A stretch of DNA of 64,000 nt, from positions 1,184,001 to 1,248,000 of the forward strand of contig OY762209.1 in assembly GCA_963665295.1 (NCBI GenBank), given 5' to 3'. The position numbers and the translations under genes are program-made. The stretch comes from Syntrophorhabdaceae bacterium. GTDB taxonomy: Bacteria > Desulfobacterota > Syntrophorhabdia > Syntrophorhabdales > Syntrophorhabdaceae. Below, piece after piece: positions 1,170 through 43,987 of this stretch. How positions within the stretch are numbered: position 1 is the first letter of the stretch; every line of letters starts with the position of its first letter. The notes below the pieces were generated by a model that did not search any database, was not told where the DNA came from, and worked only from the letters and a program-made list of their open reading frames with translations.

Positions 1170-1765
1170 CAAAAGAAACGGCCTAATGTCAATGTGACGG
1201 AGTTGATGCCCGTATTGTCGTGGTTGAGTCCGCCGTTCGAGATATGGTGGAGCCTGAGACCGGCGAGGCACGTGGTGTCGGAACCCACCGTGAACTCGGT
1301 GCCGATACCTACCTGGGGGTTGAAATTGACCCGAAGCCCCTGCCCATCGACCTGAAAATCGGTATAGATCAGACCGATCCCTCCTTCGACGTAGGGCCGA
1401 AAGGTTTTGAATGCAAGCCTCTTGAGATAGTAGAGGGCAAATATGTTCGCCGAGGTCATGAGCTTCCTGTCGGGTCTCGTGGTGGTCCCGACGCTGGTCT
1501 CCACCTTGAACCGGAGCGGTTCAGGGGCCTTGTGACCCCAGACCGATTCGTAATCAAAGAGGGCGAAACCCGAGAGGAGCACAAAGGATATATCGTTTTC
1601 AGGGGTATAGCTGTTGCCCCCGGTTACGGCCATGCCGTAGCGGGTGGGCACATGCTTCGCTGCGGCATCTTCGGCCCGGACCTTTCCCGGAAGGAACGCC
1701 CCGGAAGAGAAGAACACCGCGCACATGAGAATGAGAATAATCCCGTCCTTCCTCAACACTGTCAT
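1169..1765 (-). CDS. PagL-like outer-membrane lipid deacylase (acyloxyacyl hydrolase family)
   Basis: Signal peptide; PYVEGGIG; FNPQVGIG; HHISNGG..NTGIN catalytic-type motif; C-terminal Phe. GGAG precedes ATG 1765. Confidence 0.8.
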   Translation of the reverse strand: MTVLRKDGIILILMCAVFFSSGAFLPGKVRAEDAAAKHVPTRYGMAVTGGNSYTPENDISFVLLSGFALFDYESVWGHKAPEPLRFKVETSVGTTTRPDRKLMTSANIFALYYLKRLAFKTFRPYVEGGIGLIYTDFQVDGQGLRVNFNPQVGIGTEFTVGSDTTCLAGLRLHHISNGGLNHDNTGINSVTLTLGRFF

Positions 1766-1772
1766 CACTCCT

Positions 1773-2876
1773 TTACGCGGCCCTCGGGGCAAGGGTGATC
1801 ATCCCCGTATCCGTTCCTCTGCCGAGTTTGAGGCAGCATATGGAATGTGCGCGAAGGTCCCGGGGGAGCGTGGAAATATTCATGAGGGGCGGAAGGGTGA
1901 TCCCGGCCGGAGGGGCATACAGCGTTCCCTCCCTGATGGATGCACATGCCGCCGCCATGTCGAAGGCCATATTTGTGGGAAAACTCCCGTAGACGGGCGC
2001 GTAGGACGTTACCTTCATCTCGTCCGTGATCAATTGTTTGTACCGCGAACCGGATTGGGCGTTTCCATCGGCCCCGAGGATAAACAGGGTTTGATCCGGC
2101 CGGGGAAGGGGGGCGCTGTCCCGGTATTCCGTAAGGGCCCCTGTGACACGACCGTAATCGTTCCCTGACCCGCCTGTGCGGGAAAGGAGAAAGAAGGCGG
2201 CCCCTTCCCCGATAACCGCCGTCTGCCGGTCGAAGAGGAAGGGTTCGGTCCCGGCATCGGACCGGTTCGGTCCGAAGAAACGATGCCAACAATATGCCCA
2301 CACGTCACAGTACTCGTCCACCGCGCCGAAGAGCACCCTTTCCACCCTTCCTTCCTGCAGCCAGTGAAGGGCGGTAATAAGCGCGGAGGGAACGGACATC
2401 TCGAACTGGCTCACCGTGAGGCACGGACCGGTTGCGCCGAGGAAGATGGAGACGTGCGCCGCAGCGGCATTGTGGACCGAGTTCGAAAAATGGGTGGGAG
2501 AGGAGTACGCGTCGTTGCCGTTGATAAACGAATCGAGAAAAGCAAAGGTCGTGGCGCCCGCGCCATATCCGCTCGCCACGACGATGCCGAGGCCCTTGCG
2601 GTCGATATCGAGCATTTGGGCGTCTTCCAGGGCGAGGTATGATGCGAGGACAGCCATTTTTGCATGATGGTCTATCCTTCGCAACGCCTTCTTCGGAACA
2701 TATATATCGAGACGCGCCGTGTCCGCGAGAAAGGCGGGCATTTCCCCGGTCCCTTCCCCTGTGTGAAAAGAAACGGACCGCACCCGCCTTGTTCCATGGG
2801 CGAGGGCTGCCGAGAATTCCTTAATGTCTGCGCCGAACCCCCCGACAATACCGATCCCTTCGACAAAAGCTTCCAT
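1773..2876 (-). CDS. Ketosynthase-like chain length factor (non-catalytic)
   Basis: KS N-terminal motifs (SPTHFSNSVHNAAA); catalytic Cys position reads TVSQFEMS; no HGT motif. Confidence 0.8.
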   Translation of the reverse strand: MEAFVEGIGIVGGFGADIKEFSAALAHGTRRVRSVSFHTGEGTGEMPAFLADTARLDIYVPKKALRRIDHHAKMAVLASYLALEDAQMLDIDRKGLGIVVASGYGAGATTFAFLDSFINGNDAYSSPTHFSNSVHNAAAAHVSIFLGATGPCLTVSQFEMSVPSALITALHWLQEGRVERVLFGAVDEYCDVWAYCWHRFFGPNRSDAGTEPFLFDRQTAVIGEGAAFFLLSRTGGSGNDYGRVTGALTEYRDSAPLPRPDQTLFILGADGNAQSGSRYKQLITDEMKVTSYAPVYGSFPTNMAFDMAAACASIREGTLYAPPAGITLPPLMNISTLPRDLRAHSICCLKLGRGTDTGMITLAPRAA

Positions 2877-2878
2877 AT

Positions 2879-4078
2879 TCAGTCCTCCCTCCTGCCCAGC
2901 ACCAGGACCCCGTTGCACCCGCCGAAGGCGAGAGATTGGGAGACGGCAGTGCCGCCTGTGATGGTAGTTGCGGCCGCTGACGGGGATACGGCCATCTCGG
3001 GATCGAGGTTCGCGAAGCCCGCATTGCCGGGTATCATGCCCTTTTCAAGGCACGCCACCGTAAAGGCAGCCTCGATGGCCCCGGCTGCTCCCAGGGTATG
3101 TCCCGTGTAGCCTTTTGTGGAGAAGAAGGGGACGCCGGGGAGTGTTTCTTTAAGCACCTTGCCCTCGATGCGGTCATTGTCGGGTGTCGCGGTGCCGTGG
3201 GCATTTACAAAGGCGATATCCGACGCTTCCCTGCGGGAGAGTCTGAGCGCTTCGAGAAGGGCCCGCTTCAATCCCTCGCCCTGAGGGTGGGGTGCGGTAA
3301 GGTGGTGGGCGTCGCTTGACGACGCATAGCCGAGAAAACGCGCCCGGGGGAGCCTTTCCCTTTTCCCGCACGAGTTTTCCGGCTCCAGTATGAGCACGGC
3401 TGCGCCCTCTCCCAGGTTAAGCCCTTTTCTGTCCCGGTCAAAGGGCTTGCAGGGGGTGTCATCGGTGATCATGAGGGAGATAAAGCCGTTATACGTTACA
3501 TGACAAAGCTCATCGGCTCCCCCTGCAATAACGATATCGCAGAGGCCCGATTGAATCCACGATGCCCCTATGCCCACGGCATCGGTGCCGGAGGAGCACG
3601 CGTTCACCACTGTCTGGCACGGCCCCGTAAGCTCGAACTCCCGGGCAATCAGGTCGGCGGGATTGCTCGTGATGAAGCGGGCAATGGGCGCCATATCGGG
3701 GCTACCCCCTTGGAGAAACTCTCCATAGAACATCTCGTTGTTCATTGCCACGCCCACCGTCGTGCCCAGGCACACCCCCACTTTTTTCCCCTTGAGGGCA
3801 ATGCGGTCGAGGCCTGCGTCGCTTATTGCCTCGTAAGCGGCGGCGAGGGCGAGCTTGCCCGTGAGGGAGATCTTCGTAGAGGCCATGATATGACCGGGGA
3901 TTGCGGCTTCAGGCACCTCGAACACAGGATAGGAGACGGGGTGGGTGCTTTGGAACCTCGTGGGCGGCGCAGGACTTCGCGTGCCCCTGAACAGGGAATT
4001 CATGCATTCCCCGAGCGTCCCTCCGGCTCCCGAGAGGCAACCCGCTCCGGTTATGTCGACAGGGACGGTTTTGTTCAC
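2879..4078 (-). CDS. Beta-ketoacyl-ACP synthase (FabF-like)
   Basis: NACSSG, NAHGT, KGYTGHTLGA, AFGG. GTG start overlaps the ACP stop. Confidence 0.92.
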   Translation of the reverse strand: MNKTVPVDITGAGCLSGAGGTLGECMNSLFRGTRSPAPPTRFQSTHPVSYPVFEVPEAAIPGHIMASTKISLTGKLALAAAYEAISDAGLDRIALKGKKVGVCLGTTVGVAMNNEMFYGEFLQGGSPDMAPIARFITSNPADLIAREFELTGPCQTVVNACSSGTDAVGIGASWIQSGLCDIVIAGGADELCHVTYNGFISLMITDDTPCKPFDRDRKGLNLGEGAAVLILEPENSCGKRERLPRARFLGYASSSDAHHLTAPHPQGEGLKRALLEALRLSRREASDIAFVNAHGTATPDNDRIEGKVLKETLPGVPFFSTKGYTGHTLGAAGAIEAAFTVACLEKGMIPGNAGFANLDPEMAVSPSAAATTITGGTAVSQSLAFGGCNGVLVLGRRED

Positions 4079-4329
4079 AGGGCTCTCCTTTCCTCGACAA
4101 AGGCGGCAAGGGTGTTGATGCATTGAAAGGCCTCACGCCCCTCGTCGATGTTTTTGACGGCGATCCCGAAATGTTTCTCAAGGAGGACGACCAGTTCCAC
4201 GGCGTCCAGGGAATCGAGACCGAGACCCTCCCCGAAAAGGGGTGTATCGTCTTCGATCTCTTCGGGTGTAACATCCTCCAGGTTAAGCTCTTCCACAAGA
4301 ATCTTCTTCAGTTGTTCCTTGATAGTCAT
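4075..4329 (-). CDS. Acyl carrier protein (aryl-polyene-type)
   Basis: PLFGEGLGLDSLDAVEL phosphopantetheine motif; acidic, 84 aa. Confidence 0.92.
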   Translation of the reverse strand: MTIKEQLKKILVEELNLEDVTPEEIEDDTPLFGEGLGLDSLDAVELVVLLEKHFGIAVKNIDEGREAFQCINTLAAFVEERRAL

Positions 4330-4349
4330 CAAACTTCCCTCTCCTTTCA

Positions 4350-5294
4350 TCAATGGTCGGCGTTATCGAGCCTCCACATGTCGTAAAAATTATAGAACTG
4401 GTAGGGGTGTTCAGTTGTATAGGATTCAAGGGCCCGTGCGAACTGACCGACATAGGGGAGAAAATCCCTATTGCTCTTTCCTGCGTCGTGGGGTACGCGG
4501 ATCACCTTCGCAACCTCCAGGGTGTAGGTGGAGGGGCCCGACTTGTGGGAAAAGAAGACCACCACGGGCGCCCCTGTTGCCGAGGCTATCTTGAAGGCGC
4601 TGAAAGGGAAGAGAACCTTCCCTCCAAGGAAATCTACGGCGGCGGCCCCTTTCGAACTGCCGAAAAGCCTGTCTCCCATCACACAGAGGACCTCACCCCT
4701 CTTAAGCAGGCCCATCATCTCCAAAACGCCGCCCATGTAGCCCCTCGGGTCGATTATACCGTAAGGGCACGGAATCCCCGCGTGTTCAAAGTAGTGAAGG
4801 TCAATATCGCCCTCCTCGCGCTGCAGGAGGAGATGGACAGGCGCGTTGAGGAACCGCAGGGCCGACATGGCGGCCTGCCAGCATCCCACGTGGGCCGTCA
4901 TGAGGATCATGCCTTTGCCTTCGCGCATAATGTCGAATATCTCGTTCCTTTGTGCGAATTCCACGGTCATCTTCTCTTCGCCCAGGATGCCGGTCACTGC
5001 CCGGTCTATGAGCGCCTTCCCAAGGCTGAGAAATATGCGGTAACTGTCTCCGAGCCTTCCCGCCGTTCCCTTCCCCCTGAACCTCCGGGAGAGGTAATAG
5101 TCCGCCTTTCTTCGTATTGACGGCGCCAGGAAGACATAGAAGAGCACGACAAAGGAAAGAACGAAATATGCAAATCTTCGTCCCGCATACCTGATGAGGA
5201 GATAGAAGAACGTGTGGCCGAAGTGCGAACCGATGCTGCGGCTTGTCCATTGCCCTTCTCCCGCAGGGGTCGGTCCGGGGTCAGTCGTTTCCAT
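4350..5294 (-). CDS. LpxL/HtrB-like lipid acyltransferase
   Basis: N-terminal membrane anchor; TAHVGCWQ; VMGDR; VDFLG; HPYQFYNFYDMW C-terminus. Confidence 0.82.
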   Translation of the reverse strand: METTDPGPTPAGEGQWTSRSIGSHFGHTFFYLLIRYAGRRFAYFVLSFVVLFYVFLAPSIRRKADYYLSRRFRGKGTAGRLGDSYRIFLSLGKALIDRAVTGILGEEKMTVEFAQRNEIFDIMREGKGMILMTAHVGCWQAAMSALRFLNAPVHLLLQREEGDIDLHYFEHAGIPCPYGIIDPRGYMGGVLEMMGLLKRGEVLCVMGDRLFGSSKGAAAVDFLGGKVLFPFSAFKIASATGAPVVVFFSHKSGPSTYTLEVAKVIRVPHDAGKSNRDFLPYVGQFARALESYTTEHPYQFYNFYDMWRLDNADH

Positions 5295-6465
5295 GGGTTT
5301 CCCTTTTGAGGCATAGGGCGGTTACGTAAATGGCGGCTGCAGTAAGGATACCTATCACGGGTCCGAGAATGAGAGAGCCGAGGAACCACTCGAAAATCCT
5401 CTCAAGGGCCTGATACCCGAGGGTCTCCAAGGAGACTTCGGTGAGGAACCTGCCGTGGCGCATAAAGTATCCCGCTTCAATGCAGAGCGCGGGGACCAGC
5501 GGGGGTATGCAGATCTGGCCCGCGGCAAGGGCCATCAATTTGTTCAACCGGAAATAGTTCGCCGCGAAGAGGGTAGTGATGCTCTGGCACGCAATGAGGG
5601 GCAACGCTCCGATGAATACGCCGAGTCCCCCTGCCACGGCAAGCCTTTCCGGCGAGTTATTCCCTGTGAGCAGCAACCTAAGGGACTTGAGAGGCCTGAG
5701 GAGGGTGACCTTTTCCGTCTCCTTCCTTCCTGTCCTGAACCTTTTGTGCGGGTAAGGAGTAAGGGCCCTCAGGGTGAGCCTTGTATTGAGGATGCTGAGG
5801 CGGAGATTGTCCATAAAGAGACGGAAGTGGGACACACGCAGGGAAGAGGGGGGATAATATACGGATATATCGACCTCTTTCAGGATCACTCCCGCCCACA
5901 CGGCCTTCACGAGAACCTCCACCTCGAAGTCGTAGTGCCGCTCCCTCAGTTTCAGCCATTCAAGGAGGGCAAGGGGATAGGCGCGAAAGCCGCTCTGGGT
6001 ATCTTTCAGCTTATATCCCGTCTGGACCCTCAGCCAGAAGTTGGAGAAGGCCCGGCCGAACCGGGAAAGAAGGGGGGTGGTGGCCGAATCGAATGCCCGG
6101 GTGCCCACGATGATCGCATCGGGGTCTTCGTCGATCAAAGGGAGAAACCGGGGGTAGTCGGCGGGGTCATGCTGGCCGTCCGCGTCGATGGTCACTATGT
6201 GGGTTGCCCCTCTTGTGCGCGCTTCGTGGGCGGCGGTGATGATCGCGGCGCCCTTGCCCCTGTTCAGGGGGTGCCTTATTTCCGTTACGGGGAGTCCTGC
6301 GAGGGTCTCTGCGCCGCCGTCGGTGCTCCCGTCGTCAACAACTATCACATTATCGTTCACCGCGAGGGCCCGGACCACCACGTCCCTCAGAGTCTTCCCG
6401 TGGTTGTACACCGGGATGACAAGGAAGACCTTCGGCATTTCAGGGCTCTTTTTCTCCAAATTCAT
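5281..6465 (-). CDS. Glycosyltransferase family 2 fused to DUF2062-like membrane domain
   Basis: VIPVYN, VVDDGSTD, NRGKG, DADGQH, DTQSGFR; hydrophobic C-terminal domain. Confidence 0.88.
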   Translation of the reverse strand: MNLEKKSPEMPKVFLVIPVYNHGKTLRDVVVRALAVNDNVIVVDDGSTDGGAETLAGLPVTEIRHPLNRGKGAAIITAAHEARTRGATHIVTIDADGQHDPADYPRFLPLIDEDPDAIIVGTRAFDSATTPLLSRFGRAFSNFWLRVQTGYKLKDTQSGFRAYPLALLEWLKLRERHYDFEVEVLVKAVWAGVILKEVDISVYYPPSSLRVSHFRLFMDNLRLSILNTRLTLRALTPYPHKRFRTGRKETEKVTLLRPLKSLRLLLTGNNSPERLAVAGGLGVFIGALPLIACQSITTLFAANYFRLNKLMALAAGQICIPPLVPALCIEAGYFMRHGRFLTEVSLETLGYQALERIFEWFLGSLILGPVIGILTAAAIYVTALCLKRETHGND

Positions 6466-6474: not shown

Positions 6475-7389
6475 TCATTCCTGGCGCGTAAGGAACTCAA
6501 GGATCTTTCTGTTTACCGTCTCCGGCTGCTCCACCGTAAGGCCATGACCGGCGTGGGGAATAATCTCCGTATCCATACGGGGCGCCACCCTGTTGAGACG
6601 CAGAACAGCCTTCCGGGCCGGATAGATCCTGTCGTTTTCACCGATCAGACAGAGCACGGGTATCCCGATGCTCCCCAATTCCTCGTCCGTGAGGACGGTC
6701 GGCCGCACAAAAGGCTTACGTGTGAAGCATTGCGAAGCGACGAACATGTCGTCCGCCGCATTCGTGAGCGCCGCCCGGTCGGCCGCGCCTCCGCGGGCGA
6801 GGTCGGCGAAGGCCCATCGCATGAAGCTCCTGGTAAAGGTGCGGCAGGGTAGTGTGGTGAGGACCGCCCGGAACATAAAGGCGACCCCCATGGGCAGCAC
6901 CGTGCACGCGGGTGCAAGGAGCACTGTCTTCGCAAGTCTGTGGGGAAAACGGAGGGTGTAGAGACATGCCAGCCAGCCCCCATAGGAGAGACCCATAAGA
7001 TTGATCGCGTCTTTGAGTTCAAGGACGCGAAACAGCTCGTCAAGCCAGCGCACAAAATCATCGGCGCCTTTGACGGCGCGGGTGTATACGCTTCGCCCGT
7101 AGTCATAGATGTTATCCACCGCATAGGTTCTGAAGGGCCCTGACAGGGCCTTTATGTTCGGGACCCACATGAGCGACGTGCTTCCTGCCCCGGGCAGCAA
7201 TACCAGGGGCGGCCCATGGGCAGGCCCGCTCACGCGTACGAATGTGGGGCCGTAAGACGTGTCCGCCGTTACAGCCTCGGAAGCGACGGGCCACTGTTTC
7301 GCCCTCCTCTCATAGAGGTCGAGGTACCGCTCTTTCGCCTGCGCCGACCGAAAAGGGTGATACGGGGGCAAGGGCCTTGCTTCAGCCAT
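6475..7389 (-). CDS. Alpha/beta hydrolase
   Basis: GLSYGG nucleophile elbow, GENDRI, AGHG. Confidence 0.88.
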   Translation of the reverse strand: MAEARPLPPYHPFRSAQAKERYLDLYERRAKQWPVASEAVTADTSYGPTFVRVSGPAHGPPLVLLPGAGSTSLMWVPNIKALSGPFRTYAVDNIYDYGRSVYTRAVKGADDFVRWLDELFRVLELKDAINLMGLSYGGWLACLYTLRFPHRLAKTVLLAPACTVLPMGVAFMFRAVLTTLPCRTFTRSFMRWAFADLARGGAADRAALTNAADDMFVASQCFTRKPFVRPTVLTDEELGSIGIPVLCLIGENDRIYPARKAVLRLNRVAPRMDTEIIPHAGHGLTVEQPETVNRKILEFLTRQE

Positions 7390-8827
7390 GCCGCTTGTCG
7401 GTCCATGCGAATTTCAGGAACGCCATGAGATGGGAGACGAACCGTATCCAGCTATCGGGTGAGCGCCATATCATGGTGAAATAATGCCAGATCCCCTTGG
7501 GCCTCAAGATGTGCTTCCGGTAGAACAGGGTGAAGAGCTTTTCCAGCTTCTCCCGTGTCATTCCCGCGGGTATGAACTGAAAATGCATGCAGTCCATCTT
7601 CTCCCAGTCCTCGTCAAAGGCCCCATAGTCCCCTATGTTCTTATAGAGGGCGGACCCGGGAAAGGGTGTGAATTTCGATACGTTGATATAATCGATGGGG
7701 AGGGAAAAGACATAGTCCATGCTCTTCTTCACGCTTTCCTGCGTCTCCCCGGGTAATCCCATCATCATGAGCCCCTTGACCAGAATCCCCGCTTTCTTGA
7801 TGAGCCTCACCTTGTCCGCCACAAGGTCGAGTTTGACATTATTCCGATGCTGGGAAAGGAGTTCTTCATCTCCATTCTCGATGCCCAGGCTGATCATCCA
7901 GCACCCTGCGGCCTTGAGCCGTTCCAGGAGGTCAAGGTCGATATGGTCCGCCCTCACGGCACAGTTAAAGGTCATTCCCGGGGGATGGTCGATCATCATG
8001 CGGGTAAAAGCCTCCACCCTCTTCCGGTGAAAGGTGAACTGGTCGTCGTAAAGGTTGACGTGCCGTATCCCGAAGCGCCCTTTCAGGTACCGCAGGTGCT
8101 CATAGAGATACTCCGCCGAGTTGTACCGGTAGCCTGCGGGAAAGACCGACCTGTCGCAATAGGTGCACCGATACGGGCAGCCGCGGCTCGAAGTGCAACT
8201 GGAGTTGGGGGTGTGGGGGTAGTTGAAGATGGGAAGCCTGTATGTCTCCGGATAGCCGTCGAGTTCTTCATATGCAGGAAAGGGGAGGGTGTCGAGGTCA
8301 AGAAGGGGGGAACGGTAGCCCGTAAAGCGGACATCGCCCGAAGCCTCCCTGTAAAGCAGGCCCCCGATTGAAGAAACCCCTTCTCCTTCGGCCTGAATGA
8401 GTTCCGTCATGGTCATTTCTCCTTCGCCCACAACGGCAAAGTCGATGACAGGGAACGAGTCGAGGGCCTCTTCCTTCAGGGCCGACACATGGTGGCCTCC
8501 GAATACCGTTTTTATCCCGGGCAGAACGTTCTTCGCCCTCTCCGCGATGCGGAGTCCGTCACGGAAGTTCGCGGTGGCACAACTGAATCCGATGAAGGCG
8601 GGCCTCGCGTCTCTCAGGTATTCATCAATAAGGTGACCCGAATGCGGCTTGGCGTAGCAATCCATGATCTTCCCTTCGATCCCTCTTTCTTTCAAATAGG
8701 AAGCGATGCTCGCAAGCCCCAGGGGGGGCATGATGTTGGCCATCCTTGAAATATCTCCGCCTGCGGCGTCGGTGTGATAGCCGAGGGGATGGATAAGAAG
8801 CACTTTCTTGAAGTCGAGAACGGTCAT
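7382..8827 (-). CDS. B12-binding radical SAM enzyme
   Basis: MPPLGLASIA..GGHHVS N-terminal domain; SRGCPYRCTYC; LGIENG. Start set at ATG 8827. Confidence 0.9.
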   Translation of the reverse strand: MTVLDFKKVLLIHPLGYHTDAAGGDISRMANIMPPLGLASIASYLKERGIEGKIMDCYAKPHSGHLIDEYLRDARPAFIGFSCATANFRDGLRIAERAKNVLPGIKTVFGGHHVSALKEEALDSFPVIDFAVVGEGEMTMTELIQAEGEGVSSIGGLLYREASGDVRFTGYRSPLLDLDTLPFPAYEELDGYPETYRLPIFNYPHTPNSSCTSSRGCPYRCTYCDRSVFPAGYRYNSAEYLYEHLRYLKGRFGIRHVNLYDDQFTFHRKRVEAFTRMMIDHPPGMTFNCAVRADHIDLDLLERLKAAGCWMISLGIENGDEELLSQHRNNVKLDLVADKVRLIKKAGILVKGLMMMGLPGETQESVKKSMDYVFSLPIDYINVSKFTPFPGSALYKNIGDYGAFDEDWEKMDCMHFQFIPAGMTREKLEKLFTLFYRKHILRPKGIWHYFTMIWRSPDSWIRFVSHLMAFLKFAWTDKRHG

Positions 8828-8831
8828 GATG

Positions 8832-10196
8832 TCAGTGTCTGGACAAGGGTTGTCGAAAAGAAATGAGTCTCTGCCACGGGGGACCCCGATGGCCGAAACG
8901 GTACATGATGTCGAGTTTTGACTGAAACGATGAGGGAGGGAATATGCGGTCCCTCCGGCCCCTGAAGGCATTCTCAAGGGTTTCGTTCATGCGCGCCGCA
9001 TCTATGTCCGGAGAAAAATAGAATACAGGCTTCAAAAGGGGGTCTTCTTCTCCCACCACGCCTTTCTCTACGGACAATCCGTGGAGGGCGGCGCCCGGAT
9101 AGATGCGTACCCCCGAGAACGCAAGGACCACGCAGTCCCTGAGGGACGTCATATTGCTCAGTCCTTCTCCGAGGCTACGCTCCGTTTCTCCCGGACCCCC
9201 GAACATTACGTAGTGGACACAGGGGGTCTTCTCGTCAACGCACGCGTCATTGAAATGAACCACATCGTCGAAACAGAATGGCTTGTTGAGGCCCTGGAGG
9301 GTCGTGTCGCTTGCCGCATCCGTACCTGTTTCCACAGCCGCGAGTCCCGAGCGCTTCAACAATCGCAGGTCTTTGCCGTGGAGCCCCCGGGGCTGAAAAA
9401 ACGCGGACCATTCGATGCGGATTTCCCGGCGCACCATCTCCTCGACAATCTCGAGATAGTTGCCTTCACCGTCATTGAACACCGAGTCGGTGAAGAACAC
9501 ACTCTCAACATGGTGATCTTTTTGCAGTTGCAGGATATCTTCTATCACGGACCCCGGTTCTCTGCACCGGTAGGTCGTCCCTTCCACAGCCGGATAGGTG
9601 CAATAAATGCAATTGTACGGGCAGCCGCGCTTGGTGTGAAGACCGACCACCCCGCTCTTCTTTACATAGTATTTGATCAGTTTCCTGTCCCAGAGGGGTC
9701 GGAACACCATGTCTCCGGGGCCGGCCGTTTCCGCGTTTCGCGAGATGGCCTGCGCCGGCTCTCCGCTCTCTATCTTCGCGATGAGAGCGTTGAAGAGAAT
9801 CCCCCCTTCTCCTACGATCCCGTAATCTCCCCCTACATAGGCGAGGATATCCTCGGGCATGATGGAAAAGGCCGATCCGCCCAAAACCACGGGGGCCCGC
9901 GTCACCTTCCTGATGATTTCTATCAATGCCCGCACTGAGGTGAGGGTCCAGGCATCCTCCGCCGTAAAGGAATCGACGTTGTCGATATTGCGGAGCGACA
10001 GGCCGACAACATCGGGCTTGAATGCCCTGATCGCATTGCCGAGCCTTTCGGAGTCGCCCTTTTCAGCGAGGAGATCGAACTGTTTTACCCTGTGTCCCCG
10101 GGAGGTCAGGGCAGAGGCAACTACCGCCATCCCCAGGGGGTATACCGGGTAAGGCCCGGTCATGGTGTTGGTGGAAAGGAGAAATACCCTGCTCAC
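8832..10196 (-). CDS. B12-binding radical SAM enzyme, lipid-biosynthesis-associated type
   Basis: PYPVYPLGM, SLRNIDNV, LGGSAFS, KRGCPYNCIYCTYP. Confidence 0.9.
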   Translation of the reverse strand: MSRVFLLSTNTMTGPYPVYPLGMAVVASALTSRGHRVKQFDLLAEKGDSERLGNAIRAFKPDVVGLSLRNIDNVDSFTAEDAWTLTSVRALIEIIRKVTRAPVVLGGSAFSIMPEDILAYVGGDYGIVGEGGILFNALIAKIESGEPAQAISRNAETAGPGDMVFRPLWDRKLIKYYVKKSGVVGLHTKRGCPYNCIYCTYPAVEGTTYRCREPGSVIEDILQLQKDHHVESVFFTDSVFNDGEGNYLEIVEEMVRREIRIEWSAFFQPRGLHGKDLRLLKRSGLAAVETGTDAASDTTLQGLNKPFCFDDVVHFNDACVDEKTPCVHYVMFGGPGETERSLGEGLSNMTSLRDCVVLAFSGVRIYPGAALHGLSVEKGVVGEEDPLLKPVFYFSPDIDAARMNETLENAFRGRRDRIFPPSSFQSKLDIMYRFGHRGPPWQRLISFRQPLSRH

Positions 10197-11458
10197 CCGT
10201 TCGTCCTTGGGGCCCCGAAGGAGCGCTTTTTCCGCGTGTCGTACCTCCGGTATGTCCCGTCGTCCATTTCCCGGCGGATGATCTTTTTGAACAGCTCACC
10301 CATCTTAAGCTGGTAGCCGCCTCCCGCGTAAAAGGTGTCCCATGCGTAACGATACATTTCAAGGAGCTTTTCGGGAGTCATCAATTTTGGTTGAAAAACC
10401 ACCTTATCCGCCGTGTAATCGATCCAGTTGTTGCTCAGGATCCTTCCTTCTCCTTCAAGGCGATCCCGTATCGGGGAATGGGGGAAGGGGGTCAGGATGG
10501 TGAACTCCGCCATATCGAGGTCTATCTCAAGAAGGAAATCCACCAGCCTCTTGATGTAATCTTCGTCCTGTTCGTCGGTCCCGAGGATGATGGTCCCCTC
10601 GACGCCGATGCCGTAGTCTTTCAGTCTTCTGACTCTGGTCCGGATCACGTCCGATGTATCGAAGATGGCCTGATACACATACCAGCTCCCTGCCTCCGCC
10701 GCAAGGCTCAACACCTTGTCGTCATCCAGAATGGGATGGGAGACCCACTTTTTTTTCAGGGGGACCATGGCGGTAAAGAGGTCGATGAGCCACTGCCGGT
10801 CCTGGGACAGGGAATTGTCAACGATGAACATCCTGTTATTGGGGATGGAGGCCATTTCTTCGATGACCATGTCAATCGGCCGCGGGCGGAATTGCCTTCC
10901 TCCGAGAAAACCCGTACAGCACGGAAAACAATTGAACTTGCACCCTCTCGACGCATGGACGAGATCGAACATCTGGACGCCCCGGTAGTTGTAAAGGGAA
11001 CGGTCAAGGATCTCCCGCCTCGCCTTTCCCACGAGGTGAATGTCCGGGTAGGCGGTCATGTAGTCATAGATCTTCCTGAGCCTTCCCCTCTTGAAGTCTT
11101 CGAGCACCCCGGCGAACCTGCCCTCCACCTCGCCGATGAACACGCTGTCCGCATGGTGCACGACCTCTTCGCTGTGGAGCATTACCGCGATCCCGCCGAA
11201 TATGACGGGAATCCCCATCTTTCTGTAGACGCGGGATATCTCGTAGGCCCTCGGGAGCTGGCTGGTGAGCATCACCGATAGGGCGACAAGATCGGGACCC
11301 GCATCAAAGGTTATCTCCTGGACGTTGTCGTCGATGAAGGTGATGTCAACCTCGGGGGGAACCTCTGCGGCAAAGACCGCCGGGCCGTGGGGCGGCAGGT
11401 GGAACTCCGTTTGTCCTTCCAGCTTGGGCCAGGACGGGTAGATGAGCGTCATCTTCAT
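10193..11458 (-). CDS. B12-binding radical SAM enzyme
   Basis: FHLPPHG, FGGIA, SRGCKFNCFPCC, LTPFPHSP. ATGA-coupled start at 11458. Confidence 0.88.
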   Translation of the reverse strand: MKMTLIYPSWPKLEGQTEFHLPPHGPAVFAAEVPPEVDITFIDDNVQEITFDAGPDLVALSVMLTSQLPRAYEISRVYRKMGIPVIFGGIAVMLHSEEVVHHADSVFIGEVEGRFAGVLEDFKRGRLRKIYDYMTAYPDIHLVGKARREILDRSLYNYRGVQMFDLVHASRGCKFNCFPCCTGFLGGRQFRPRPIDMVIEEMASIPNNRMFIVDNSLSQDRQWLIDLFTAMVPLKKKWVSHPILDDDKVLSLAAEAGSWYVYQAIFDTSDVIRTRVRRLKDYGIGVEGTIILGTDEQDEDYIKRLVDFLLEIDLDMAEFTILTPFPHSPIRDRLEGEGRILSNNWIDYTADKVVFQPKLMTPEKLLEMYRYAWDTFYAGGGYQLKMGELFKKIIRREMDDGTYRRYDTRKKRSFGAPRTNG

Positions 11459-12198
11459 TTGTCTCGATTGCCCCCTTTTTGGTCGCGCATGGATGCAGTA
11501 CACATGCTCGCAAGATTATTCAGGTCTTCTACCTGTACTCCATTGAACAGGGTAGCACCCTCCCCGTTTTGCGTCAATGCGCCGTACGAGGGGCCCCGGT
11601 CGGATATCCCGTCCTGTATTACAAAAAAGAGCGCCCCCGGAGCGCCGCTGCCTGTTCCGGCAAGCGACGGGGGAATCCCGACGTCGCACACGCCCGCCAC
11701 AGCCGTAGCATATTCCCCGCCCGCGATGCCGCTCATGGCCATGCGCAAACCCTGGAGGCCTGAAAGCGTTGGTTCACAGAGGACAAAGCCCGGGCCCGTG
11801 AGTCCGAAGTGGACTGCCGCTTCTCCGAGATACGTATTCGCAAGGGTGTAGGCAAAAAGGTTGGGGCTTGCGAGGCGGCCCCCTTCGGGAATAACCGTAT
11901 CGTAGTAGTCATTGTCCAGGCTCAGGCATCCGTAAACCGTGGAAGCGATAACGGCGATGTCCCGCGGGTTCGACCATTCGTCGAGTCCCGCATCCTTAAG
12001 GGCGAAGGATATGGCGGATACGCCGAGACGGGAATAGGCATCCATCCTGCCGAACCGCGGGAAGGGCCTGGAGGAGACATCCTTTCGCGAGAGCTTCGGC
12101 AATGGTCCGTCACCGCCCGCGAGGAAGGGAACCTGTCTTCCGCATCCCGCCCCTGCGGCATTGATCCAGCCCACACCAATGAGTTCGACTCTCAGCAT
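11455..12198 (-). CDS. Truncated ketosynthase-like protein (N-terminal domain only; CLF-like)
   Basis: RFGRMD, ASPNLFAYTLAN; 247 aa; lacks the His-His half. Confidence 0.8.
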   Translation of the reverse strand: MLRVELIGVGWINAAGAGCGRQVPFLAGGDGPLPKLSRKDVSSRPFPRFGRMDAYSRLGVSAISFALKDAGLDEWSNPRDIAVIASTVYGCLSLDNDYYDTVIPEGGRLASPNLFAYTLANTYLGEAAVHFGLTGPGFVLCEPTLSGLQGLRMAMSGIAGGEYATAVAGVCDVGIPPSLAGTGSGAPGALFFVIQDGISDRGPSYGALTQNGEGATLFNGVQVEDLNNLASMCTASMRDQKGGNRDK

Positions 12199-13325
12199 GA
12201 TCCTCCCCGCTTAAGCAGGATTGCCGCATTGATCCCGCCAAATCCGGAGTTCGTGGTGAGAAGGCAGTCGCCCGCCATGGAGACGGGTTCCGAGCCGACA
12301 AGGCCTTCCGCGCCCTCCTCGGGATTGACAAGACCGACAGTGGGCGGAATCGTGTATTCGGCGAGGGCCTTCGTCCCCAGGGCGACCTCGATGCCCCCTG
12401 CCGCGCCGAAAGTGTGCCCTATACACCCTTTTACAGAGTAGAGGGGCGGGCAATCGCTGCCGAAGATTATGTGAAAAGCGGTAAGTTCCATGAGGTCGTT
12501 CTGATAGGTTCCGGTTCCGTGGGCGCTTATGCCTGCGATATCACGGCGATCCATCCCTGCCCGGGCAATTGCTTTGGAGACTGCCTTGACGAGGCCTGAG
12601 CCTTTGGCGTCCGGGGCCGTCACATGAAAGGCATCGTTGGCTACGCCGAAGCCTTTCACGGTACACATGGGGGAATAGCCTTCCCGCCGGGCACAGGTTG
12701 AGCTCATGAGCAGGAGAAATGCCGCCCCCTCTCCGGGGGAGAGGCCTGCCCGGTCCCTGTCGAAGGGTTTGCATGGCACGGGCGAGAGGGCCTGAAGCGC
12801 GGAAAAACCCGAAAATATGAATTCCGTAACCCCATCCGCACAGCAGATAAGCACTGATTCCGCGCTTCCCGATGCGATCATGGCTGCCCCCTCCGCCACT
12901 GCAATCGTGGAAGACGCGCACGCCGCGCTTATGGTTATTACGACGCCGGAGAGACCCAGTCTCGCCGACACCCTTTCCCCTATGGATGACGGAAGAATCT
13001 CGCCCGGGTTGGAGGCAAGGCCCCGTTTCATCTTTTGCAGGTTATCGATGCCTGCCTTTGTGGTAGCGGCGATGACCAGGGAACCGGCGGGAACCCTCGT
13101 GATCTGACCGAGGAGCATGTCCACTATCGCCGAAACCAGAGAGCCCGGTCCTTCGGCTTCCAGACCGGGGATGATTCCACCCACCGTGCTGCGGTAGGCC
13201 TCTACGGGAAAGCGGTCTATTTCACTTATCGCCGTCTTGCCGGACAGCATCTTGAGCCACGTGGCGTCGAGGCTGTTCCCTGCCGACGTCACCATGCCGA
13301 CGTCCGTGATCCAGACTTCCCTCAA
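12192..13325 (-). CDS. Beta-ketoacyl-ACP synthase (FabF-like)
   Basis: AACASS, SAHGTGT, KGCIGHTFGA, NSGFGG. Probable TTG start overlapping the thioesterase stop. Confidence 0.9.
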   Translation of the reverse strand: MREVWITDVGMVTSAGNSLDATWLKMLSGKTAISEIDRFPVEAYRSTVGGIIPGLEAEGPGSLVSAIVDMLLGQITRVPAGSLVIAATTKAGIDNLQKMKRGLASNPGEILPSSIGERVSARLGLSGVVITISAACASSTIAVAEGAAMIASGSAESVLICCADGVTEFIFSGFSALQALSPVPCKPFDRDRAGLSPGEGAAFLLLMSSTCARREGYSPMCTVKGFGVANDAFHVTAPDAKGSGLVKAVSKAIARAGMDRRDIAGISAHGTGTYQNDLMELTAFHIIFGSDCPPLYSVKGCIGHTFGAAGGIEVALGTKALAEYTIPPTVGLVNPEEGAEGLVGSEPVSMAGDCLLTTNSGFGGINAAILLKRGGSC

Positions 13326-13783
13326 TGGAACTGGCCCGCCTTCCACTTTTCGCAAAATTCCCGGTAAAAGGGAGGCGGAATGAGAAGGAGATTGCCATCC
13401 ATATCGAGCATTATCTGCACCGTGTAGCCCGTGGTGGCCAGGAGGCCCTCCTTGTCGCGTATCACGTACTCAATATCGATGCGCGCCGCCTCGGTCCAGT
13501 GGAGAATGCTTTCGATGGTAAAATTATCCAGATATCTCAAGGGCCGGTGATAGTCCGAATGCATGATTCTTATTGGGGCGATCACGCCATTCCGGACAAG
13601 GTCCGGATAGCCGAGGCCATACCTTTCCCCCGCCGCGCAGCGCGCGTCTTCAAAATAGCTCGCATACCGGCCATGCCAGACAATGCCGAGGGGATCGGTC
13701 TCTTCGAATCGTACCCGCCTCTCCACGGTGGTCCTGAGCGGCGCGGGAGAACCTTTCCTGACAGGAAAATATGGTTTACGCAT
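13322..13783 (-). CDS. Acyl-CoA/ACP thioesterase (4HBT hot-dog family)
   Basis: RVRFEETDPLGIVWHGRYASYFEDAR. Confidence 0.88.
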   Translation of the reverse strand: MRKPYFPVRKGSPAPLRTTVERRVRFEETDPLGIVWHGRYASYFEDARCAAGERYGLGYPDLVRNGVIAPIRIMHSDYHRPLRYLDNFTIESILHWTEAARIDIEYVIRDKEGLLATTGYTVQIMLDMDGNLLLIPPPFYREFCEKWKAGQFH

Positions 13784-13795: not shown

Positions 13796-14206
13796 TTATG
13801 AAGTGGTGTCTAAATTTTCTATTGCGTCCTGTTCCGTGCGGCGTACGGTAAGGAGCAAAGAGGCGGCGAGGCTTTCAGCAACGGAAAGGGTTACCTCGAT
13901 GCCTGTCGCTCCCCTGACGGCACGCTCGCGATACCGCACCTCCACTTCCCGGTCGGGGTGGATTTCGGTGCGAAACTTGGCCTTGACAATGGAAACAAGT
14001 GTGAGCCCGCGCCCCTCAACCTCTTCCGCCATGGAAAGGGCGGTGAGCACCTGGAGAAACGCGGGAAGGACCGGGTAGCCGGGAAAGTGGCCCGAAAAGC
14101 CTATGAAATCAGGGGCAAAGGAATAGGACTTCACGAAAATGCCCCCTTCCGTCTCCTTTGCAGGGCCTATTGCCGATAAAGAAATGGCGGTCTTGAGTTT
14201 ATCCAT
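13796..14206 (-). CDS. 3-hydroxyacyl-ACP dehydratase (FabZ/ApeI-like)
   Basis: FSGHFPGYPVLP, AKF..IHP. Start set at ATG 14206. Confidence 0.82.
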   Translation of the reverse strand: MDKLKTAISLSAIGPAKETEGGIFVKSYSFAPDFIGFSGHFPGYPVLPAFLQVLTALSMAEEVEGRGLTLVSIVKAKFRTEIHPDREVEVRYRERAVRGATGIEVTLSVAESLAASLLLTVRRTEQDAIENLDTTS

Positions 14207-16607
14207 TTTCCGGGCAGGACTCCCGCTCGGTCCTCCGCGAATGATAGAGGGCAGGTATGACAAAAAGGGCGGAGGGTATGGCGCCGCACATGCCGAGAAG
14301 CACTGATATTCCGATGGAGTACAGGGCGGGGTGGCGGGCAAGGGCAAGGGCGCCCATACCCACAAGGCTCGTGAGTCCGCCGAGGAGCACCGCCATGCTC
14401 GTATTGTGATCGTTTCCTTCAGAAATCCGGCTCACCATGAAGATGCCGAGGTCCACACTCAAGCCGATCACCAGGATCGTCGCGATGATGTTGAAGAGGT
14501 TGAACTCGATGCCCCTCCACCCCATGGCGCCGAACATAAAAAGGAGGCCTGCGGCAACAGGAACGGCGGCGTAAAGCACTTTTGCCGGCGAGCGGAAGAC
14601 CATGCAGAGAAAGACGACTATCACGATCGATGCAACGATGATGTACCTGACGAAATTGTTCACCATGGCCCTGCTGATGGTATCATTGAAGCGGGTATTC
14701 GACACAAAGCGCTCCACGAAAGGCGTACGTGCCCGATCCTTGAAGAGCGCGGCCACTTCCGGGGTATCGGGCACCAGGGTGAGGACTCGCCGGCCGGGGC
14801 CGTCACGGATGATCATGGAGTCTATCAGATCGCCAAACCCGGCTTTTCTGAGGCCCTCCATGGTGACCGGGGCGGGCTTGACTTTAAGCCTTTCCAGAAA
14901 AGCCTCGAAGGCCTGCGGGGTGAAGCCTTCCTTTGCGCCCTCCCGTTCAATAAGCCCTGCCACCATGTTCCTGTTCTCTTGTGACCATTGCCCTTCCCAG
15001 CGCCGCCGGTTCGCCTCCTGGGTTGCCGCCGAAGGGAGGAGGGGGGCGAGACTGATGACCCCATCGTCGGGAATCTTCCCTTTGAGGTATGAGAAGAGCC
15101 GGTCGTTATTCACCAGCGCGGACTCCAGGTCCTTACCTTCCGCAAAGACCATTGCCTTTCCGCGGAAATCTCCCCAGGTCTGTTTCAGTTGTTCCTCCAT
15201 CGCGTGTATTGCCCCGGGGATCATGCTTATGGCGCGCATATCTCCGTTGAACCTGATGTGGCTTCCCTGCCACAGGCAGAGCCCCATGAGCAGGAACCAT
15301 CCCGTAATAACGGTACCCCGATAGAGGGGTCCCCTGACAGGGTGAGGGGCGGCGGGAAAGCCTTTCCCCGGCGGCAGGCCCCGGATGAAATGGGGCAGAA
15401 TTATCAGGGAAAAGATGAGGGACGCAATGATACCGATAATGGAAAAGAGCGCAATCTGGCGCTGGCCGGGGAGGTCGGAAAAGAAAAGGGCGCTGAAGGT
15501 CGCCATGGTGGTTACGCCGCTCATAAGAACGGGACGGGAGATCCGGGCAACCGCCTCTCCCTTGTAGTCACCTGTGCCTCTCAGGGAAAAGTACGTGAAT
15601 ATGGGATAATCATCGGCAATTCCCATGAGCACCGAACCAAAGGCGATGGTCACGGCGGAGATGGTGCTGTAGACACACAACACTCCCGCAGTGGCGATGC
15701 AGACTACCGATGTGGGCACCAGAAAGACAAAGATGGCCCTCCAGTTCCGCATGAAAAGAAAAAGGAGCGCGAGAATGGTAACGGATGCACAGGTGAGTAT
15801 CACATAGAGGTCTTCTTTTATGGTCTCTGCGTTGGCGGTGGTGTAGGAGTGGCCGCTTAAGAAGGAAACGGAAATGCCCGGCACGTTATGGGCGTCCACA
15901 ACCTTCTTTGTGTAGGCGACAAGGTTCTTTGCCCCCTCGGCGTCCGTGATCTTGATGGGGGTTTCACCGATGAGAAGGGCATTTTTGCCGTCGGCGCTTA
16001 TGAAATGGTTTTCTTTAAGGACCATTCCCCCGAACATATTCATGGAACGGAGTTTCCCGAGAATGATGAGATAAAACTGAAGGGGGTCCGCCTGAAGCAG
16101 GGGTTTCATGACCCATCCCTGAGGAGAATTGAGGATGGTCCGGATATCATTGAGCCGGGCGTCAACCTTCTCGGGGGTAAGGAGTCCCCTTACCTGTTCC
16201 ATGTCCTTCTCCGTCATAAGCGAGGGGCCGGCCTGGAGGACCCAGGAGAAGAATTCATCGGGCGCCGGCATCTCCGGACCGGCGATCACGCGACTGTAAT
16301 AAGGCGCCTTCAACGCCCCTGCAAGGGCATCAGCGGCTTCCACAAGGGTCTTCCCGTCAACCCCGGGGCCGGCCTTGAGGTTGAACACTATTTTCTGCAT
16401 AAAAGGAGCCTGCTGCAGAAGGCGGAAATCTATCGCCGCGTCCGATGCGCCGTCAGGAAGCAAAGGCTGGACATCCTCGCTGAGTTTGATGCTTTTGAGA
16501 AGGAAGGCGCTTGAAGCCACGACTGCGAAAATTATCGCATACAGGAGTATGCGGCGACGCTCGAAAAACTCGAAAGCCCTCGAAAATATGGCGTAAAAGG
16601 GGGCCAT
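14199..16607 (-). CDS. MMPL/RND-family exporter
   Basis: 802 aa with two TM bundles; GIADDY and GLSVDLGIF motifs. Confidence 0.88.
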   Translation of the reverse strand: MAPFYAIFSRAFEFFERRRILLYAIIFAVVASSAFLLKSIKLSEDVQPLLPDGASDAAIDFRLLQQAPFMQKIVFNLKAGPGVDGKTLVEAADALAGALKAPYYSRVIAGPEMPAPDEFFSWVLQAGPSLMTEKDMEQVRGLLTPEKVDARLNDIRTILNSPQGWVMKPLLQADPLQFYLIILGKLRSMNMFGGMVLKENHFISADGKNALLIGETPIKITDAEGAKNLVAYTKKVVDAHNVPGISVSFLSGHSYTTANAETIKEDLYVILTCASVTILALLFLFMRNWRAIFVFLVPTSVVCIATAGVLCVYSTISAVTIAFGSVLMGIADDYPIFTYFSLRGTGDYKGEAVARISRPVLMSGVTTMATFSALFFSDLPGQRQIALFSIIGIIASLIFSLIILPHFIRGLPPGKGFPAAPHPVRGPLYRGTVITGWFLLMGLCLWQGSHIRFNGDMRAISMIPGAIHAMEEQLKQTWGDFRGKAMVFAEGKDLESALVNNDRLFSYLKGKIPDDGVISLAPLLPSAATQEANRRRWEGQWSQENRNMVAGLIEREGAKEGFTPQAFEAFLERLKVKPAPVTMEGLRKAGFGDLIDSMIIRDGPGRRVLTLVPDTPEVAALFKDRARTPFVERFVSNTRFNDTISRAMVNNFVRYIIVASIVIVVFLCMVFRSPAKVLYAAVPVAAGLLFMFGAMGWRGIEFNLFNIIATILVIGLSVDLGIFMVSRISEGNDHNTSMAVLLGGLTSLVGMGALALARHPALYSIGISVLLGMCGAIPSALFVIPALYHSRRTERESCPENG

Positions 16608-17269
16608 TACGGGTTAAACAGATCGTGAGGCAACGGTTCGTCCAGGAGGATGTGGGAAAATTTGATACGTACGTAATCCCCGCCTTTCTCGTGTATCTCC
16701 ACTGAACGGACGTGGGACCAATCCTTGGAAAAGGCAATGATGAGGTGGGAGACATACTTTTTTTCCTGGGAGGAAAGGGGATTGAGTTTCAGGGCCGTCG
16801 GCCTGTCTTCCGCCACGGTAATCCTGTACCTCTTTTCGAGCCAGGGGAAATCCGCCCGTGCCCATGCAAATACCTGCTCCACAATGGCCTTTGCCACGGG
16901 CTCCTTCTGTACGTCAAATGTCTCTGCCTTATTGACGTCTCCCTCCCACCGCTTTGCCCTGGTTCCTCGTACCACAAATCCCGCGGGAGACGGTTTTGTG
17001 ATCTCCCAGTAAAGACGATCCGGTTTCTCGTATGCAAACCGTCCGCTCGAAACGAGGGGGTCTTTCAGCATGGACGAATACTTTTCCTGGGTAAAGCCGC
17101 TTGAGATGGTCCGGAGGGCTGTTGCTGCGGCGGCAATACGGGAGAAGGCCTCCGATCTCACGTCCCGCTTCTCCGGCTCATCTTTTGGTTCCGCCGCGAA
17201 TCCGAGGGCCGCCCAAAGGAGCATAGGGATGATAAGGGAAGAGAGATAAAGAAATGTCCTCCTGGTCAT
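16607..17269 (-). CDS. LolA-like periplasmic carrier protein
   Basis: Signal peptide; FTQEK..SSGRFAYEKPDRLYWE; EKGGD. Confidence 0.85.
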   Translation of the reverse strand: MTRRTFLYLSSLIIPMLLWAALGFAAEPKDEPEKRDVRSEAFSRIAAAATALRTISSGFTQEKYSSMLKDPLVSSGRFAYEKPDRLYWEITKPSPAGFVVRGTRAKRWEGDVNKAETFDVQKEPVAKAIVEQVFAWARADFPWLEKRYRITVAEDRPTALKLNPLSSQEKKYVSHLIIAFSKDWSHVRSVEIHEKGGDYVRIKFSHILLDEPLPHDLFNP

Positions 17270-17712
17270 TGTGCCTCCCTGGGAACCCAGACCATGACGC
17301 TTCCGGAGGCTATTGCCTCTCCTTCCCGCATTACCGTGCCTTCTGCCAGGGCAAATTCGTCCATGTCCCCTGTCTTCCTTATGATGATCGACAATTTGTC
17401 GCCCCCGTGAGCGGTTCCGAACAACTCGAACCTTTTCACCTCCACGAGAAAACCTTTCGCCACCGCTCCCCCTTCCGTGAGGTCCTCATACCCTTTGACT
17501 GCCGCAAAGGATTGAGCGATAAGCTCGACAAACACGGTGGGCTCGACTGAACCGTCATTTCGAAGGAAGATGCTGTCCGGCCTTATGGTCGACTCCGCCA
17601 CGCCGCCGTGGCCCGCCCGGAACCCGGTCAAGCGGTCGATTGCGAGCATAGGCGGCCTCTGAGGCAGCAGCTTCGCGGCTGCGACAGGGAGATCGAGGGG
17701 ATGTCCGCTCAC
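17266..17712 (-). CDS. Hot-dog dehydratase (ApeP-like)
   Basis: LLPQRPPMLAIDRL, ELIAQS, GFLV. Confidence 0.8.
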   Translation of the reverse strand: MSGHPLDLPVAAAKLLPQRPPMLAIDRLTGFRAGHGGVAESTIRPDSIFLRNDGSVEPTVFVELIAQSFAAVKGYEDLTEGGAVAKGFLVEVKRFELFGTAHGGDKLSIIIRKTGDMDEFALAEGTVMREGEAIASGSVMVWVPREAQ

Positions 17713-18488: not shown

Positions 18489-18494
18489 CCTGTT

Positions 18495-18776: not shown

Positions 18777-18777
18777 G

Positions 18778-23692: not shown

Positions 23693-23695
23693 CTC

Positions 23696-24424: not shown

Positions 24425-24444
24425 GTCCTTGTCCTGCGGGCTGT

Positions 24445-31644: not shown

Positions 31645-33596
<1,952 letters not shown>

Positions 33597-40631: not shown

Positions 40632-40646
40632 GCGACGCCATCGTTG

Positions 40647-40676
40647 TTGACAAAGTGGTACCTGTCCGGATATAAT
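40647..40676 (+). promoter_or_regulatory. Sigma-70 promoter of the leuA leader
   Basis: TTGACA-N18-TATAAT. Confidence 0.85.
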
Positions 40677-40682
40677 AGCCTT

Positions 40683-43984: not shown

Positions 43985-43987
43985 AAT

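Follow-up and report, generated by a model that had tools for sequence, protein, structure and literature searches.

Three radical SAM genes in a lipid operon

The stretch of DNA considered here, 64,000 nucleotides of contig OY762209.1 from a Syntrophorhabdaceae bacterium (phylum Desulfobacterota), is referred to below as the window. It contains three tandem genes, rS3, rS2 and rS1 in order of transcription, for proteins that combine a cobalamin (B12)-binding domain with features of radical S-adenosylmethionine (SAM) enzymes. They lie inside an operon (in a neighbourhood on the scale of 43 genes; Table 1) that runs from position 25023 beyond the left edge of the window, and that includes four ketosynthases (KSs) with intact Cys-His-His triads, two catalytically bare partners resembling chain-length factors (CLFs), two dehydratase-like genes and two acyltransferases. 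The KS/CLF pairs and dehydratases, with acyl carrier proteins (ACPs) and FabG, bear out the context envisaged in the original prediction for this DNA, an assembly line for an ACP-bound polyene. Four-base overlaps occur at the junctions of CLF2 with rS3 and of rS3 with rS2, the rS1 start lies 5 bases past the rS2 stop, and the stop codon of rS1 overlaps with the ATG that follows it; as judged from these junctions, the trio is translationally coupled on the minus strand.

The B12-binding model PF02310 exceeded its cut-off (32.1 bits) in all three proteins (82.6, 67.2 and 36.3 bits), and each has one CxxxCxxC motif, so that the predicted tandem array of B12/radical SAM genes stands. The rS3 version of the motif is atypical, a Pro replacing the usual aromatic residue, and the general Radical_SAM model PF04055 (cut-off 29.5 bits), which matched rS1 and rS2 (85.4 and 49.9 bits), gave no match to rS3 at E≤0.001 in a Pfam profile search, the only hit besides PF02310 being DUF4070 (24.8 bits). 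A cobalamin-binding Rossmann domain in all three (also as predicted folds for rS2 and rS3), together with CxxxCxxC and a partial TIM barrel, accords with class B enzymes. Pairwise identity within the trio is 22-24%, which confirms the strong divergence first noticed and rules out a recent duplication. The assignment of the middle gene to TIGR04072 was also correct: rS2 scored 633.5 bits (cut-off 360), it is the protein in which the PYPVYPLG and RNIDNV motifs are located, and its neighbourhood has the lipid-biosynthesis context that goes with the family, of which rS1 (83.7 bits) and rS3 (42.8 bits) are non-members. The nearest named relatives are in Syntrophorhabdaceae (86% for rS3, with near-full synteny in one related locus).

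A TsrM-like site in rS2

The solved structure closest in sequence to rS2 is that of TsrM (E 9e-27), the tryptophan C2 methyltransferase (PDB 6WTE/6WTF), and the predicted rS2 fold (pLDDT 95.6) has a template-modelling (TM) score of 0.85 to TsrM, against 0.69 for the next protein. The next-best family models for rS2 are both of methyltransferases, BzaD (188 bits; PMC8123684) and TsrM itself (125; more exactly 124.9 bits with TIGR04428, under the cut-off of 500). The two proteins are only 22-24% identical, rS2 being some 120 residues shorter, yet much of the site described for TsrM (PMC9204698) is kept. TsrM Gly65-x-Thr67-x-Arg69 aligns with rS2 Gly65-x-Ser67-x-Arg69, and the ribose-binding Asp335, Lys346 of helix a4a and Arg412 of strand beta6 correspond to Asp293, Lys305 (within one column) and Arg364. 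When rS2 was aligned with 95 full-length sequences picked from 150 listed representatives (96 rows), Arg69 was kept in 95 rows, Asp293 in 84, Lys305 in 96 and Arg364 in 93.

Arg69 of TsrM blocks the lower face of the cobalt and favours transfer of a methyl cation to an sp2 carbon, according to the accounts in PMC8992657 and PMC9204698. The conserved Arg69 of rS2 points to methylation of an sp2 carbon, and from both alignment and model rS2 looks more like a methyl-cation transferase such as TsrM than a radical cyclase; methyl transfer, whether polar or radical, is its likely reaction.

The SAM sites of rS3 and rS1

The SAM-binding motifs (an aromatic residue before the third Cys, the ribose motif and helix a4a) are present in rS1 and rS2 and altered in rS3. 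Of the trio, rS3 is the most conserved, with 55-84% identity across two phyla and all three cluster cysteines kept. CxxxC[FY]PC and, at strand 4, YVYQA occur in all 120 of the rS3 homologues listed (from 6137 matches), and YVYQA is shared by 39 of 40 open reading frames (ORFs) in the compared loci that are at least 50% identical to rS3. From the first Cys to strand 5 there are 115 residues, compared with 134-135 in four relatives (30-33%) that bear a GFES motif; the ribose motif has been lost, and in the AlphaFold model (pLDDT 91.9) strand 4 is joined straight to helix 4 without a4a. Even with PF04055 absent, the model matches B12/radical SAM structures, AprD4 best (TM 0.77), while the ESM Atlas returned uncharacterised clusters only. 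Both alignment and model indicate that two SAM-holding elements of rS3 have been rebuilt under strong selection. The GFES-bearing relatives are found, with lower-scoring TIGR04072 proteins, in a second type of cluster (loci L109, L111, L114, L115 and L117) that has ACP, acyltransferase and thioesterase genes and few ketosynthases nearby.

For rS1, the best models are HpnJ (190 bits, cut-off 578) and BchE (175, cut-off 481); all are far below cut-off and non-diagnostic. More generally, the top weak matches of these enzymes (HpnJ, BchE and AprD4 for rS1, BzaD for rS2, the AprD4 fold for rS3 and, for the fourth enzyme introduced below, HpnR) have the domain layout in common with them, but the scores fall far under the curated cut-offs and the pathway context is not shared.

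Distribution of the trio

The counts given here and below come from samples that include related, hence non-independent, genomes and many fragmented assemblies. Of the 301 genomes sampled from the phylum, 63 have a TIGR04072 match above the cut-off. The top 20, including the window's genome, score 565-672 bits (the next scores 426), and the trio is in tandem in eight of them; in 18 of the 19 others rS3 is immediately upstream of rS2, in seven rS1 immediately follows it, and each of the 19 has both rS1 and rS3 somewhere in its genome (one rS1 match being partial). Taken from the side of rS3, which was found in 45 of the 301, a TIGR04072 match at E≤1e-60 accompanies it in 41 and rS1 (at least 41%) in 37. 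In seven of these 45 genomes (G249, G295, G076, G225, G078, G265 and G272) the gene immediately after rS3 encodes an aromatic amino acid ammonia-lyase (240-308 bits with the FlxA model, below cut-off). The window's genome also has a TIGR04072-like paralogue (G000:C1:293175-294434; 288 bits, below cut-off) that adjoins an MFS transporter gene and a NUDIX gene; the surrounding 10 kb contain no fatty-acyl genes.

Further afield, 80 rS2 loci were compared out of 212 confirmed relatives, and 78 of them have assembly-line genes, the remaining two being contigs of <3 kb. The 74 distant loci (mostly Bacteroidales) have an acyltransferase upstream in 64 cases, a dehydratase downstream in 70 and an aromatic amino acid ammonia-lyase in 53, and neither darA nor darB was present in any of the 80. 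On the evidence of gene order, rS2 in anaerobic Bacteroidales occupies the slot that darA-darB fill in flexirubin clusters. It was also considered as a strict replacement for these genes, and rejected, since two rS2-bearing genomes (G303 and G304) keep both. In one distant rS2 genome FlxA and FlxY both exceed their cut-offs and an rS3 orthologue (58%) is present; rS2 and rS3 were not found in the other 250 Bacteroidota sampled. rS1 was not found in the four Bacteroidota tested, and its position varies within clusters. A Bacteroidales contig (G301:C89; loci L140-L144) has doubled darG-darH, rS2, rS3 and an rS4-like gene, with gas-vesicle-like genes between them, and also encodes a fusion of a B12 radical SAM protein with a 3-hydroxyacyl-CoA dehydrogenase (859 aa), a C45 acyltransferase, a sulfotransferase and an O-methyltransferase.

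A fourth enzyme in the place of DarA

Just to the left of the window, model scores (cut-offs in brackets) were over the cut-off for DarH, 470 (300), the DarG family, 143 (70), and StlD/DarB, 550 (450). Directly before darB is a fourth B12 radical SAM gene, rS4 (best model HpnR, 200 bits, below the cut-off of 650). DarB adjoining darG, darH, an ATP-binding cassette (ABC) pair and an ACP resembles the DarA/StlC/BrtC plus DarB/StlD systems; the difference is that the gene before darB is here the unrelated rS4. DarA-type proteins are described as aromatases (PMC6836626), and two DarA queries found none in the window's genome (one contig, 98% complete).

A darB match above the cut-off is present in 21 of the 45 genomes with rS3, and in 11 of these a full DarA gene stands directly before darB, with one more represented by a fragment at a contig end (three families). 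None of these 12 has rS4. All nine darB genomes without DarA (seven families; one has a weak 24% DarA match elsewhere) have rS4 directly before darB, and no rS4 orthologue was found in any of the 24 rS3-positive genomes that lack darB. Of six close metagenomic rS4 loci, four have downstream DNA, and in all four darB is present and darA absent. Kinship was handled in this comparison by counting families. The DarA label of the gene concerned (about 300 aa) depends on its position before darB, as in the clusters of PMC3992019 and PMC3949708, and on a faint flavodoxin match (E 0.011), curated DarA models giving no match to it; NF053538 was rejected as a DarA model, as it matched genes of the 3-keto-5-aminohexanoate-cleavage type. 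DarB matches on plasmids had no darA context. Judged by these neighbourhoods, rS4 takes the place of the aromatase DarA before darB, the two being mutually exclusive in the 21 darB genomes. The DarA-bearing genomes still carry rS3, and therefore the trio does something other than replace DarA.

A flexirubin-type cluster and its ladderane connection

The operon has the elements of a polyene type II polyketide synthase (KS/CLF, ACP, ketoreductase, dehydratase, thioesterase and export genes) together with the darB-darG-darH-ABC pair set. According to the cluster descriptions in PMC3992019 (flexirubin of Chitinophaga and Flavobacterium) and PMC3949708 (arcuflavin), it shares with those clusters FabG, four KSs, CLFs, ACPs, a thioesterase, dehydratases, acyltransferases, a deacetylase, LolA, a glycosyltransferase (GT), an exporter, darB, darG, darH and the ABC pair, and its gene set and order match those of Bacteroidota loci that carry FlxA (PMC3992019). 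DarH was over cut-off in 13 of 251 Bacteroidota genomes, and in 10 of 12 DarH-positive ones (the centre genome excluded) the gene of about 300 aa and darB come just before darG-darH. The window's cluster differs in its added B12 radical SAM genes and in the flexirubin-specific models FlxB, LolA2, DarB and DarG, which fall below cut-off here, whereas the family-level DarB and DarG models are over it. Searches of the genome gave no match to the ammonia-lyase FlxA and no close FlxY, the only ligases being PaaK-like ones at 27% outside the cluster. With DarA and FlxA matches lacking, and only these ligases, the cluster is, by gene content, flexirubin-type rather than a flexirubin member, of the general flexirubin/aryl-polyene type and not specific to ladderanes. 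At positions 17266-18488, where related clusters have FlxA- and FlxY-like genes (G184) or a FlxY-like gene (G255), the flanking genes abut, which suggests loss of aryl-starter genes.

The middle gene had been linked to a candidate island for ladderane biosynthesis, and that link is real. The island appeared in the literature in 2009, when Kuenenia kuste3335-3352 was described as syntenic with regions of Desulfotalea, Geobacter and Pelobacter (Rattray 2009, PMC2649909). The rS2 motifs recur at the start of kuste3342 as PYPVxPLG and GLSIRNIDN (supplement of Javidpour 2016, PMC4790861). TIGR04072, bare FabF paralogues, a phytoene-desaturase-like gene, MMPL, GT and deacetylase genes are common to the island and the present cluster. 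The latter has no counterpart of kuste3343, which starts with a non-B12 radical SAM domain (same supplement), and no aryl-CoA ligase, and has four B12 enzymes and the dar module. In the expression account of PMC4790861, neither Kuenenia protein (kuste3342, kuste3343) was detected in Escherichia coli and no new lipid appeared. Three TIGR04072 proteins (P0151, P0152 and P0174) have 300-370 extra N-terminal residues, which in P0151 form a SPASM-type radical SAM domain, mirroring kuste3343-kuste3342, and the G255 cluster has a SPASM enzyme beside its FlxY-like ligase.

A ladderane-type product is not supported. The idea that the cluster makes true ladderane lipids, with the trio closing cyclobutane rings, has in its favour the TIGR04072-type motifs of kuste3342 and its position in the Kuenenia candidate operon (PMC2649909). 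However, that paper found no ladderanes in Desulfotalea, which carries the island; the candidate conserved among anammox bacteria is presented as a separate cluster, kuste3603-3608, itself without direct evidence (bioRxiv 10.64898/2026.05.19.726425; PMC10139942). Moreover, a phylum with no part in anammox has TIGR04072 in the abundance noted above, and the dar and export genes, following flexirubin/dialkylresorcinol clusters, indicate a flexirubin-type product. We consider true ladderanes here hardly credible.

What might the trio do?

The trio are conserved members of a flexirubin/aryl-polyene-type cluster that is widespread among anaerobes, and we put at about 0.5 the probability that they tailor its product by cobalamin-dependent C-methylation. 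What was observed is the gene content, the co-occurrence, the residues and the predicted folds, and the following course of events is inferred from them. As in flexirubin biosynthesis, an ACP-bound polyene would be built from a starter by the KS/CLF pairs, FabG and the dehydratases. The TsrM-type Arg below the cobalt of rS2 leads to the prediction that this enzyme transfers the methyl of methylcobalamin to an electron-rich sp2 carbon, either in the aryl head or in the polyene. The ordinary SAM motifs of rS1 would suit a standard radical enzyme that attacks an unactivated carbon. For rS3, nearly always beside rS2, SAM binding would be unusual, and the protein would serve as a second non-radical methylase or a helper of rS2. 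DarB, with rS4 replacing DarA, could provide a resorcinol-type anchor, and the acyltransferases, GT2, MMPL and LolA would see to lipid assembly and export to the outer membrane. The methyl group of the flexirubin aryl ring is derived from methionine (PMC3992019).

Several points weigh against this. The best models for rS1 are of the non-methylating enzymes HpnJ and BchE. The site of TsrM Glu273, which bars SAM from the cluster (PMC9204698), is Val239 in rS2 (Glu in 0 and Val in 73 of the 96 rows), and that of Glu236 is Tyr201, aromatic as in TokK; the TsrM mechanism is therefore not wholly transferable, and, lacking the SAM-barring Glu, rS2 may also follow a radical route. With no ammonia-lyase or close FlxY, the product may lack an aryl head. 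The twelve other DarH-positive Bacteroidota genomes have neither rS2 nor rS3, so these two are dispensable for flexirubin chemistry as it is known, and an rS2-bearing Bacteroidales cluster also has an ordinary gene of O-methyltransferase fold, so that ring methylation may not need rS2.

Radical ring or cross-link chemistry without net methylation is carried out by GrsA/B, BchE and HpnJ. One or more of the three might likewise form rings or cross-links on a polyene lipid (cyclopropane, cyclopentane, cyclobutane or a sugar ring contraction), a reading that we find doubtful although it has some attractions: HpnJ and BchE are the best models for rS1, the GT2 and deacetylase genes recall the HpnI-HpnK-HpnJ route, a similarity to the rS3 B12 domain is visible by eye at the N-termini of kuste3608 and kuste2803, and B12/radical SAM ring synthases that act on lipids are described in PMC13459092. 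The model scores concerned, though, are about a third of the cut-offs, rS2 carries the cobalt face of TsrM, and no ring-bearing lipid was found in Desulfotalea (PMC2649909). Alternatively, like BchE, the trio could be oxygen-independent oxidases that stand in for aerobic steps (desaturation, aromatization or hydroxylation), as the mutual exclusion of rS4 and DarA and the Bacteroidales rS2 in the darA-darB slot might hint. This seems unlikely, because the two Bacteroidales genomes mentioned above keep darA-darB elsewhere, and the DarA-bearing Desulfobacterota keep rS3 and mostly rS1 and rS2, so that the trio is no DarA/DarB replacement.

It is less likely still that the trio acts off the ACP-bound chain (after release, or on a sugar, anchor or starter), or that rS3 is a non-catalytic partner. 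The ammonia-lyase genes downstream of rS3, the absence of rS1 from the Bacteroidota tested and its mobility within clusters, and the loss of SAM-binding elements from rS3 would suit such a role, but the retention of all the rS3 cluster cysteines and its conservation over two phyla fit an enzyme. The stepwise action on an ACP-bound polyene and the new C-C chemistry first proposed may still hold for rS1 and rS3. A printed link from flexirubin or darB genes, or from aryl polyenes of anaerobic Desulfobacterota, to radical SAM genes was not found in searches of an open-access library, nor was one between TIGR04072 and dialkylresorcinols, or a precedent for the flexirubin reading of the cluster, the TsrM-like site of rS2 or the rebuilt site of rS3.

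Other features of the region

Promoter and terminator scans of the region stayed at chance level. Directly to the left of the cluster are cas-like genes (L001:2330-10922), which from their starts we take to be type I-C. On the other side, groEL is at 31645-33291, an ORF at 39345-40811 presumably belongs to an IS256-type transposase, and 43912-57441 is an ordinary housekeeping region with five tRNA genes, tuf and two very long ORFs (likely rpoBC).

Table 1. Genes of the cluster and their positions (window coordinates unless prefixed)
Feature	Position	Strand	Remarks
darH, ABC pair, ACP3, convergent rS4-darB operon	G000:C1:1178032-1183922		left of window
rS4 with darB	G000:C1:1178032-1180495 (L001:12032-14495)	+	fourth B12 radical SAM gene
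DarG-family gene	1-315	-	NF053536 over cut-off; cut by window edge
Methyltransferase-like ORF	312-1271	-	no family match; putative, read from sequence alone
PagL-like outer-membrane barrel	1169-1792	-	profile search
CLF-like KS1 partner	1773-2918	-	profile search
KS1	2879-4123	-	triad intact; best model PRK09185
ACP1	4075-4353	-	NF006617 over cut-off
Lipid A-type acyltransferase	4350-5294	-	Pfam
GT2-DUF2062 glycosyltransferase	5281-6465	-	Pfam
Alpha/beta hydrolase	6475-7389	-	absent from related loci compared; variable insert
rS1	8827-7382	-	481 aa; B12/radical SAM protein, ordinary motifs
rS2	10196-8832	-	454 aa, GTG start; TIGR04072 B12/radical SAM protein
rS3	11458-10193	-	421 aa; B12-binding radical SAM, remodelled SAM site; outside curated families
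CLF-like KS2 partner (CLF2)	11455-12198	-	short, catalytically bare
KS2	12192-13355	-	Cys-His-His intact
Thioesterase	13322-13783	-	Pfam
FabA/ApeI-like dehydratase	13796-14365	-	Pfam
MMPL exporter, LolA, second hot-dog dehydratase-like protein	14199-17712	-	profile searches
PlsC-type acyltransferase, ACP2, KS3, CrtI-like flavoprotein, KS4	17709-22699	-	profile searches
Polysaccharide deacetylase, FabG (FlxB model 302, cut-off 340), BamE-domain lipoprotein	22802-25023	-	operon start
Second CrtI-like flavoprotein	25485-27158	+	divergent; cluster membership uncertain

Significance

Where proposals of radical SAM action on fatty-acyl lipids are concerned, a 2026 review (PMC13459092) mentions just the ladderanes and the Jaw5 product. 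A characterized member of the trio would thus extend B12 chemistry to polyketide lipids. TIGR04072 is common, exceeding its cut-off in about a fifth of the sampled genomes of the phylum. The flexirubin-type reading detaches one anammox candidate operon from ladderanes and suggests what product to seek, a methylated polyene ester of the outer membrane. It is conceivable, if improbable, that the cluster makes a class of outer-membrane polyene lipid not seen before, in which rS4 would be an oxygen-free aromatase, rS2 a methyl-cation donor that starts ring formation and rS3 a new mechanistic type, with carbocycles formed on a fatty-acyl chain. If that were true of the four enzymes, the culturable carriers of these genes would offer the first workable system in which to study how kuste3342 and the anammox enzymes operate chemically.

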